64,000 nucleotides of DNA from Candidatus Heimdallarchaeum endolithica (lineage in GTDB: Archaea > Asgardarchaeota > Heimdallarchaeia > Heimdallarchaeales > Heimdallarchaeaceae): positions 2,784,001 through 2,848,000 of the forward strand of contig CP084167.1 of NCBI GenBank assembly GCA_021513715.1. Reading direction: 5' to 3'. Positions 45,749 through 45,928 of the stretch are shown here, piece after piece; position 1 is the stretch's first letter; each line of letters begins with the position of its first letter. Both the position numbers and the translations under genes were made by a program. The notes under the pieces are model-generated. The model did no database searches, was not told where the DNA came from, and saw nothing but the letters and a program-made list of their open reading frames with translations.

Positions 45749-45928
45749 TCTAATGGCAATTTCAGGTTCGGAATGAGTCTGAGTGTTGCCCTGCCGCTAT
45801 GGCCGCGACGAATCGCAGCGAATGGCCGTTCCCAAGTGCTCTCGCAACTTAGTACAGGACCACACGCTGGCAGGCTTAACTTTCCCGAGTTTCTGGAACA
45901 CATCCAGATCCTTTCTGCTGCCATTAGA
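45749..45928 (-). rRNA. rrf: 5S rRNA gene, circularly permuted (3' half 45881-45813, UUCG loop 45812-45809, 5' half 45808-45761) inside a 10-bp terminal inverted repeat
   Basis: Archaeal 5S signatures GCGGCCATAGCG, CATTCCGAAC, GTTAAGCC..CAGCG, GTACT..GCGAG..GGGAA and TTCGCTGC are all present, with the halves swapped. Helix I TCGCGGC/GCTGCGA is closed by TTCG; flanks are TCTAATGGCA/TGCCATTAGA. Confidence 0.92.

Follow-up and report, generated by a model that had tools for sequence, protein, structure and literature searches.

The window analysed here, 64,000 nucleotides of Candidatus Heimdallarchaeum endolithica (contig CP084167.1, positions 2,784,001 to 2,848,000), carries on its minus strand a 180-nt region (45928-45749) that is a conserved, circularly permuted chromosomal 5S rRNA gene. 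Read along that strand, one arm of a 10-bp stem is followed by a 37-nt leader, the 5S 3' half, TTCG, the 5S 5' half, AT and the second stem arm. The 5S core spans 45881-45761, with its 3' half preceding its 5' half, and the AT lies between the end of the 5' half (45761) and the start of the 3' stem arm (45758). The two strands of helix I are capped by UUCG, which is closed by an A-U pair and not by the C-G pair of the extra-stable cUUCGg loop, and the molecule is opened instead at the helix III bulge, between the equivalents of A52 and A53. Folding of the 180-nt region gave a z-score of -3.27, and none of 200 shuffled sequences folded as well. An initial annotation, made from the letters of the sequence, had described this arrangement, and every element that it listed was found in place on the minus strand (Table 1).

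In genomic order, the Rfam 5S family RF00001 matched the 3' half with 31 bits and the 5' half with 13.6 bits, both below the cut-off of 38. Because the halves are permuted, 5S is not found at the locus at the Rfam gathering level, and the anticipated behaviour of a linear model, half-matches only, was what we observed. Under permissive settings, the 31-bit match on the 3' half forces the leader into the alignment as a false 5' half. The corresponding reading, in which leader and 3' half form a divergent normal-order 5S, was rejected: it breaks helix I, the true 5' half downstream pairs with covariation, and the two gene copies in this genome have different leaders. For the re-permuted sequence we used, in place of RF00001, our own hidden Markov model built from 21 normal-order Asgard 5S genes. 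With the locus as it stands, this model gave two half-matches in swapped order (model positions 43-115, 27.5 bits, and 3-49, 17.4 bits); after re-permutation these became a single full match to positions 3-115 (58.2 bits, E 1.4e-19). The conserved motifs of loop A, loop C, loop E and the helix III bulge are present, as invariant alignment columns. Genes for uL5 and uL18, the expected 5S binders of the large subunit, are both present in the genome.

The genome, a single contig of 3,326,783 bases, contains two 5S-like loci, the window copy and one at 2471139-2471267. The two genes are permuted, neither is linked to 16S or 23S, and their leaders and flanks differ. A normal-order 5S copy, a possibility that the initial annotation had raised, was not found in the genome by model and motif search. 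The swapped order also occurs in the complete genome of a sister species and in dozens of independent assemblies, which, with the second copy, argues that it is not a mis-assembly.

A covariance model of the permuted form, into whose building about 30 of the 83 genomes of the class went, matches 79 of the 83, in all seven families and in 14/14 high-quality genomes, so that the order of the halves noted at the window is conserved among relatives. RF00001 exceeds its cut-off in only 4/83, and none of the four is a normal Heimdall gene: two look bacterial and lie on short contigs, one is on a DPANN-like contig and one is a half-match. Normal-order candidates in bins of the class (L056, L057) were rejected, as they look bacterial, sit on short contigs and come from bins that also hold permuted genes. 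The five-helix, three-way 5S fold is backed by covariation in 36 distinct permuted cores, where 95% of cells are paired and 29/35 pairs are compensatory, compared with 33-48% pairing in slid controls. Helix I pairs across its cap and covaries in these cores. With such covariation, the same order in two copies, a complete sister genome and nearly the whole class, and no normal copy found, an assembly artefact or a pseudogene is hardly credible. We regard it as virtually certain that the locus is a functional permuted 5S gene.

In most lineages, the flanks of the permuted core form a textbook bulge-helix-bulge (BHB): next to an outer stem, a 4-bp helix to which helix III contributes its 3' strand is bordered on each side by a 3-nt bulge. 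When both bulges are cut in silico behind their second base and the ends are joined, the normal helix III joint results. The cut register varies among lineages, and all three registers rebuild the same joint, which is one base longer in family f3. In f3 (L043-L048, L120 and, provisionally, L167), the registers predict a 3-nt helix III bulge AUA and not AA. Among 81 candidate anchors, 34 have a simple BHB and 31 a nested one (1.5% and 3.4%, respectively, with shuffled 5' flanks); the remaining 16 are mostly mis-anchored. The second 5S copy of this genome has the simple form, and the window copy is nested, like nearly all copies in its family.

At the window copy, the outer motif pairs GCAG with CUGA between bulges AAA and AAU and abuts the 10-bp stem, and the inner motif pairs CGGG with CCUG and abuts the 5S sequence. 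A BHB whose cuts restore helix III thus lies at the new ends, although the outer motif is relaxed by one G-A mismatch. Across the 24 loci of the family, CAG and the third bulge A of the outer motif are invariant (24/24), and its first pair, G-A here, is U-A in 17/24 and C-G in 1/24. The outer stem covaries at 9/10 pairs and the hairpin core at 4/7, and in alignment A2 each of the 21 family rows has 4/4 pairs in the inner central helix. The third position of the 3' bulge is free to be A, T or G, which fits a base that is discarded. The initial annotation had placed the new ends in the 10-bp stem; the stem is present and covaries, but it is most likely the outer arm of a BHB, and so probably a processing stem and not the site of mature ends. 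The 37-nt leader holds a probable intron.

These signals suggest a route by which the gene could be expressed. In a short independent transcript, leader and trailer would pair into the outer stem and the outer BHB. EndA would then cut both outer bulges after the second base and RtcB would ligate the product into a 153-nt circle that retains the leader hairpin. Within the predicted circle the inner BHB (4/4 pairs, bulges AAA and AAA) closes around the hairpin, and a second round of cutting and ligation would remove a 32-nt intron and leave a 121-nt ring, in which helix III and its AA bulge would have their normal 5S sequence. From the second gene copy, with its one BHB, the same ring would arise in one step. 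We consider splicing at 52/53 very probable from the DNA, and two steps at the window copy rather than one reasonably likely; one-step cutting at the inner motif alone would also lead to this ring but would not account for the invariant CAG.

The enzymes for this route are encoded. Of two EndA subunits, the catalytic one has a Tyr-His-Lys triad and an L1/CSL loop of the A. pernix type, and EndA of the L1/CSL type cuts relaxed motifs and has been reported for Asgard archaea (PMC5829648). RtcB is encoded at G000:C1:1674331-1677159 as a 993-aa frame with two Pfam segments. The split frame suggests an intein, which would sit in the very ligase needed for the predicted 5S maturation. Splicing is in any case needed in this cell, since the neighbouring tRNA-His has a BHB intron.

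If the break at helix III were left unprocessed, the whole 180-nt RNA would serve as 5S, closed by the 10-bp stem and with the hairpin as an expansion segment. Prokaryotic 5S expansion segments are known (PMC7812874), and the covariation of outer stem and hairpin in the family would fit such a molecule. However, the flanks differ between the two copies of the genome and between families while the geometry of a 4-bp helix and 3-nt bulges is kept, and pairing of the flanks and of helix III would draw on the same bases; we judge this possibility very improbable. In another version, EndA cutting or exonuclease trimming would occur without joining, and the mature 5S would be a linear permuted RNA with a nick in the helix III bulge. 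In its favour, few sites in 5S are as unobstructed as position 52-53, which is exposed to solvent (PMC7812874), and the brown-algal mitochondrial 5S is permuted in its final product (PMC4267664). Against a nicked 5S, the three cut registers converge on one conserved joint, RtcB is encoded, and an open joint would leave the lower part of helix III held by two pairs.

The nested layout also requires ligation, as do further introns found inside permuted 5S genes. Perfect 30-nt BHB introns interrupt loop C in two families (L246:271-427 and L240:330-487) and helix IV in L239:350-507, and their removal in silico restores the usual motifs. Cutting without re-joining would break these conserved motifs, so that ligation is needed, and a nicked final product therefore appears improbable. 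A perfect nested double BHB with a 30-nt intron is present in L247 (330-520), which belongs to the unrelated family f18; its same-genus relative L126 has the simple form, a difference that may reflect gain or loss of an intron at the splice joint. Small introns in 5S rRNA appear to be undescribed.

The predicted ring, with helix I capped by UUCG, would most likely be the ribosomal 5S itself, and on the whole we lean slightly towards a ring that stays closed. The cap loop is 3-6 nt long and is UNCG in 36/67 distinct permuted cores from several families, which suits a permanent cap. No BHB was seen at the helix I cap, nor any conserved cut signal in the short linker. E. coli ribosomes tolerate a helix I capped by a tetraloop (PMC7283268), the mature signal recognition particle (SRP) RNA of Thermoproteus tenax is a circle (PMC4731332), and circular 23S is present in some archaeal ribosomes (PMC12918454). 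The spliced circle might instead be an intermediate, in which a nuclease opens the helix I cap to give an ordinary linear 5S of about 117 nt in the ribosome. Permuted tRNAs are cleaved and re-ligated into normal order (Soma 2007, as described in PMC4267664), the prevailing view is that circular pre-16S and pre-23S are opened again (PMC12918454), lineages differ in their cap loop, and the existence of Asgard lineages with normal genes indicates that linear 5S works in Asgard ribosomes. In view of the short, signal-free linker and the frequent UNCG cap, re-opening seems unlikely to us, though by no means negligible.

The full interpretation is that most Asgard archaea, including all seven sampled Heimdall families, build their ribosomes with a closed 5S ring, that Heimdallarchaeaceae make it in two rounds of splicing, and that some of these genes carry BHB introns of their own; we would give it a probability of roughly 0.45. 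Several observations weigh against the proposed splicing and closed ring. Roughly half of the cores have a cap loop other than UNCG, and in permuted tRNAs circularisation is followed by re-opening. At this locus and in 6/24 loci of the family, the outer central helix contains a G-A mismatch, and the two pairs beside the inner bulge after the first step form in only 15/24 and 9/24. Covariation of the central helix is weak because the CUG partner is also constrained by helix III, and folding showed no preference for the BHB form (-68.7 kcal/mol, compared with -69.2 unconstrained). Two scans of Joint Genome Institute (JGI) metagenome contigs found no contig with the ligated joint or ring, which is uninformative as that collection is DNA.

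The closest known relative of this arrangement is the SRP gene of T. tenax (PMC4731332). There, too, an essential noncoding RNA gene was missing from annotation because it is permuted and the new ends lie inside a conserved element; the tRNA splicing machinery rejoins them into a circle, which is predicted and not observed here. The present case differs in being an rRNA, in extending over most of a phylum rather than a few species, and in its two nested BHBs and intron. Permuted tRNA genes likewise place the 3' half before the 5' half, and their order is restored by cleavage and ligation via a circular intermediate (Cyanidioschyzon merolae; Soma 2007, cited in PMC4267664); archaeal cases are mentioned in PMC5829648. 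The linker between the halves is here a capping loop of 3-6 nt with no evident cut site, unlike that of permuted tRNAs. The tRNA linker is removed by RNase P and tRNase Z, and the RNA ends as a linear molecule.

The initial annotation had cited the SRP RNA, permuted tRNAs and stramenopile mitochondrial 5S together as precedents. The re-ligated SRP RNA proved the nearest of them, and the mechanism is like that of the Thermoproteus SRP and permuted tRNA genes; it is not of the stramenopile type. Mitochondrial 5S of stramenopiles also has helix I as a closed hairpin and a gene missed by RF00001 (Valach et al. 2014, PMC4267664), but that RNA (mtPerm-5S) is organellar, opens at the three-way junction, remains permuted when mature and is without a splicing motif, whereas the ends at our locus lie at helix III 52/53 inside BHB motifs, which sets it apart from mtPerm-5S. 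In Thermococcales and other archaea, 23S rRNA is circularised in a BHB- and EndA-dependent manner and the circles can be in ribosomes (PMC7758197, PMC12918454); those genes have normal order and are permuted at the RNA level only, unlike the 5S gene described here. 5S has been stated not to use that route (PMC12918454), and low-level 5S circles from normal genes have been reported (PMC3326292). An engineered circularly permuted 5S of E. coli has its native ends joined by a 4-nt loop, as here, and its ribosomes are functional; that construct is artificial, has its opening in loop C or D and forms a fusion with 23S (Huang et al. 2020, PMC7283268).

Across 151 genomes of the phylum, normal and permuted 5S genes are nearly complementary in distribution. 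The normal order is found in f11 (Thorarchaeota, 26/26), f20 (Borrarchaeum), f17, f15, f27 and f28, and the permuted order in Odinarchaeum, Njordarchaeales, Freyarchaeota, Jordarchaeales, f14 (probably Lokiarchaeia) and others. Weak matches of the permuted model in f11, f15, f17, f20 and f28 were rejected as half-matches to normal genes. A strict permuted-5S pattern run over 185,579 species gave 66 matches; apart from four bacterial ones, all are Asgard-labelled or unlabelled archaea, with one archaeal match deposited as Thermoproteota. The four bacterial matches, together with a viral one, do not match the permuted model and are attributed to chance. Permuted 5S outside Asgard was not found with this pattern, which is strict and may miss such genes. 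Tandem permuted copies that differ in helix II occur at L080:1451-1730, and a tandem pair at L046:586-1050, interrupted by an N gap, may have arisen in assembly.

The patchy spread shows that gene order can switch. Several of the normal-order genes (L198-L227) adjoin a DUF1512-like gene that also flanks the permuted gene of f18, which suggests a change in place. The number of origins cannot be counted, since 22/37 branches are open in a tree of 40 re-permuted and normal 5S sequences. A normal-order 5S with a 23-nt BHB insert at 52/53, whose register is that of the Odin, Jord and Freya genes, is present at L058:1501-1638 (G028 contig C117, minus strand), and this points to an intron at 52/53 as the starting point. 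Comparison of these sequences suggests that such an intron, followed by tandem duplication and loss of the outer halves, could have produced a permuted gene framed by a split BHB; the same path in reverse would give reversion to normal order. The L058 gene adjoins rpoH/rpoB on a DPANN-like contig that is probably a contaminant of its bin.

The literature searched, which did not include subscription journals, contained no description of an archaeal 5S gene that is permuted or spliced. In the paper on the complete Heimdallarchaeum genomes, 5S genes "could not be predicted" (Wu et al., PMC8813620), an escape from detection that the permuted gene order explains. Asgard genomes have been scored as without 5S, and the permuted model remedies this for all but a few genomes of the class. 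If our interpretation is true, this would be the first case of a chromosomal rRNA gene whose order has to be restored by splicing, possibly with a circular 5S in ribosomes, and the role of EndA and RtcB would extend to an essential rRNA. Heimdallarchaeia is the class thought closest to eukaryotes, and permuted 5S is nearly fixed there. Eukaryotic 5S genes have the normal order, so that eukaryotes would either have reverted or have branched outside the permuted lineages; 5S gene order may therefore serve as a discrete character in the debate on eukaryote origins.

Table 1. Features at and near the permuted 5S locus, in window positions; cut sites and roles are predicted.
Feature	Position	Strand	Basis or remark
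Candidate BRE (B recognition element)/TATA-like promoter element	45968..45985	-	similar purine-rich and T/A box at similar upstream distance in 7 family loci
Outer processing stem, 5' arm	45919..45928	-	pairs with 45749-45758; 9/10 pairs compensatory, 24 family loci
Leader, 37 nt	45882-45918	-	sequence
Outer BHB, central strand GCAG (45918-45915) and 3-nt bulge AAA	45912..45918	-	predicted cut 45913/45912
Hairpin, body of predicted 32-nt intron (A45760 + 45912-45882)	45888..45911	-	4/7 core pairs covary; in-silico two-step splicing
Inner BHB, central strand CGGG (partner CCUG 45766-45763) and bulge AAA	45881..45887	-	predicted cut 45882/45881
5S 3' half (A53 equivalent to helix I 3' strand; helices II', V, IV, loop E)	45813..45881	-	model matches
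UUCG loop linking normal 3' and 5' ends of helix I	45809..45812	-	sequence
5S 5' half (helix I 5' strand to A52 equivalent; helix II, helix III, loop C)	45761..45808	-	model matches
Outer BHB, 3' bulge AAU	45759..45761	-	predicted cuts after 45760 (step 1) and after 45761 (step 2)
Outer processing stem, 3' arm	45749..45758	-	pairing with 45919-45928, covariation
T-rich tract, possible terminator	45732..45740	-	sequence only
tRNA-His(GUG), 16-nt BHB intron at 37/38 (45565-45580)	45527..45617	-	

The putative promoter element upstream of the gene is a candidate based on its resemblance to the other family loci, and a sigma-70 promoter scan of the locus, a model that does not apply here, gave matches at chance level. 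The tRNA-His(GUG) gene, which has an encoded CCA, lies 130 nt downstream of the 5S gene on the same strand, and the two are possibly co-transcribed. On the other side, a phosphopantetheine adenylyltransferase-like gene (46075-46590, plus strand) adjoins the permuted 5S gene divergently; in Odinarchaeum the corresponding neighbour (L125:1676-2173) is on the same strand. By eye only, two Rab-like small GTPase genes (46573-47094 and 47686-48213, minus strand) near gatD/gatE, a TnpB/IS200-IS605-like open reading frame of 448 aa (49334-50680, plus strand) and a short transposase-like fragment (41615-41917, minus strand) were recognised elsewhere in the window.
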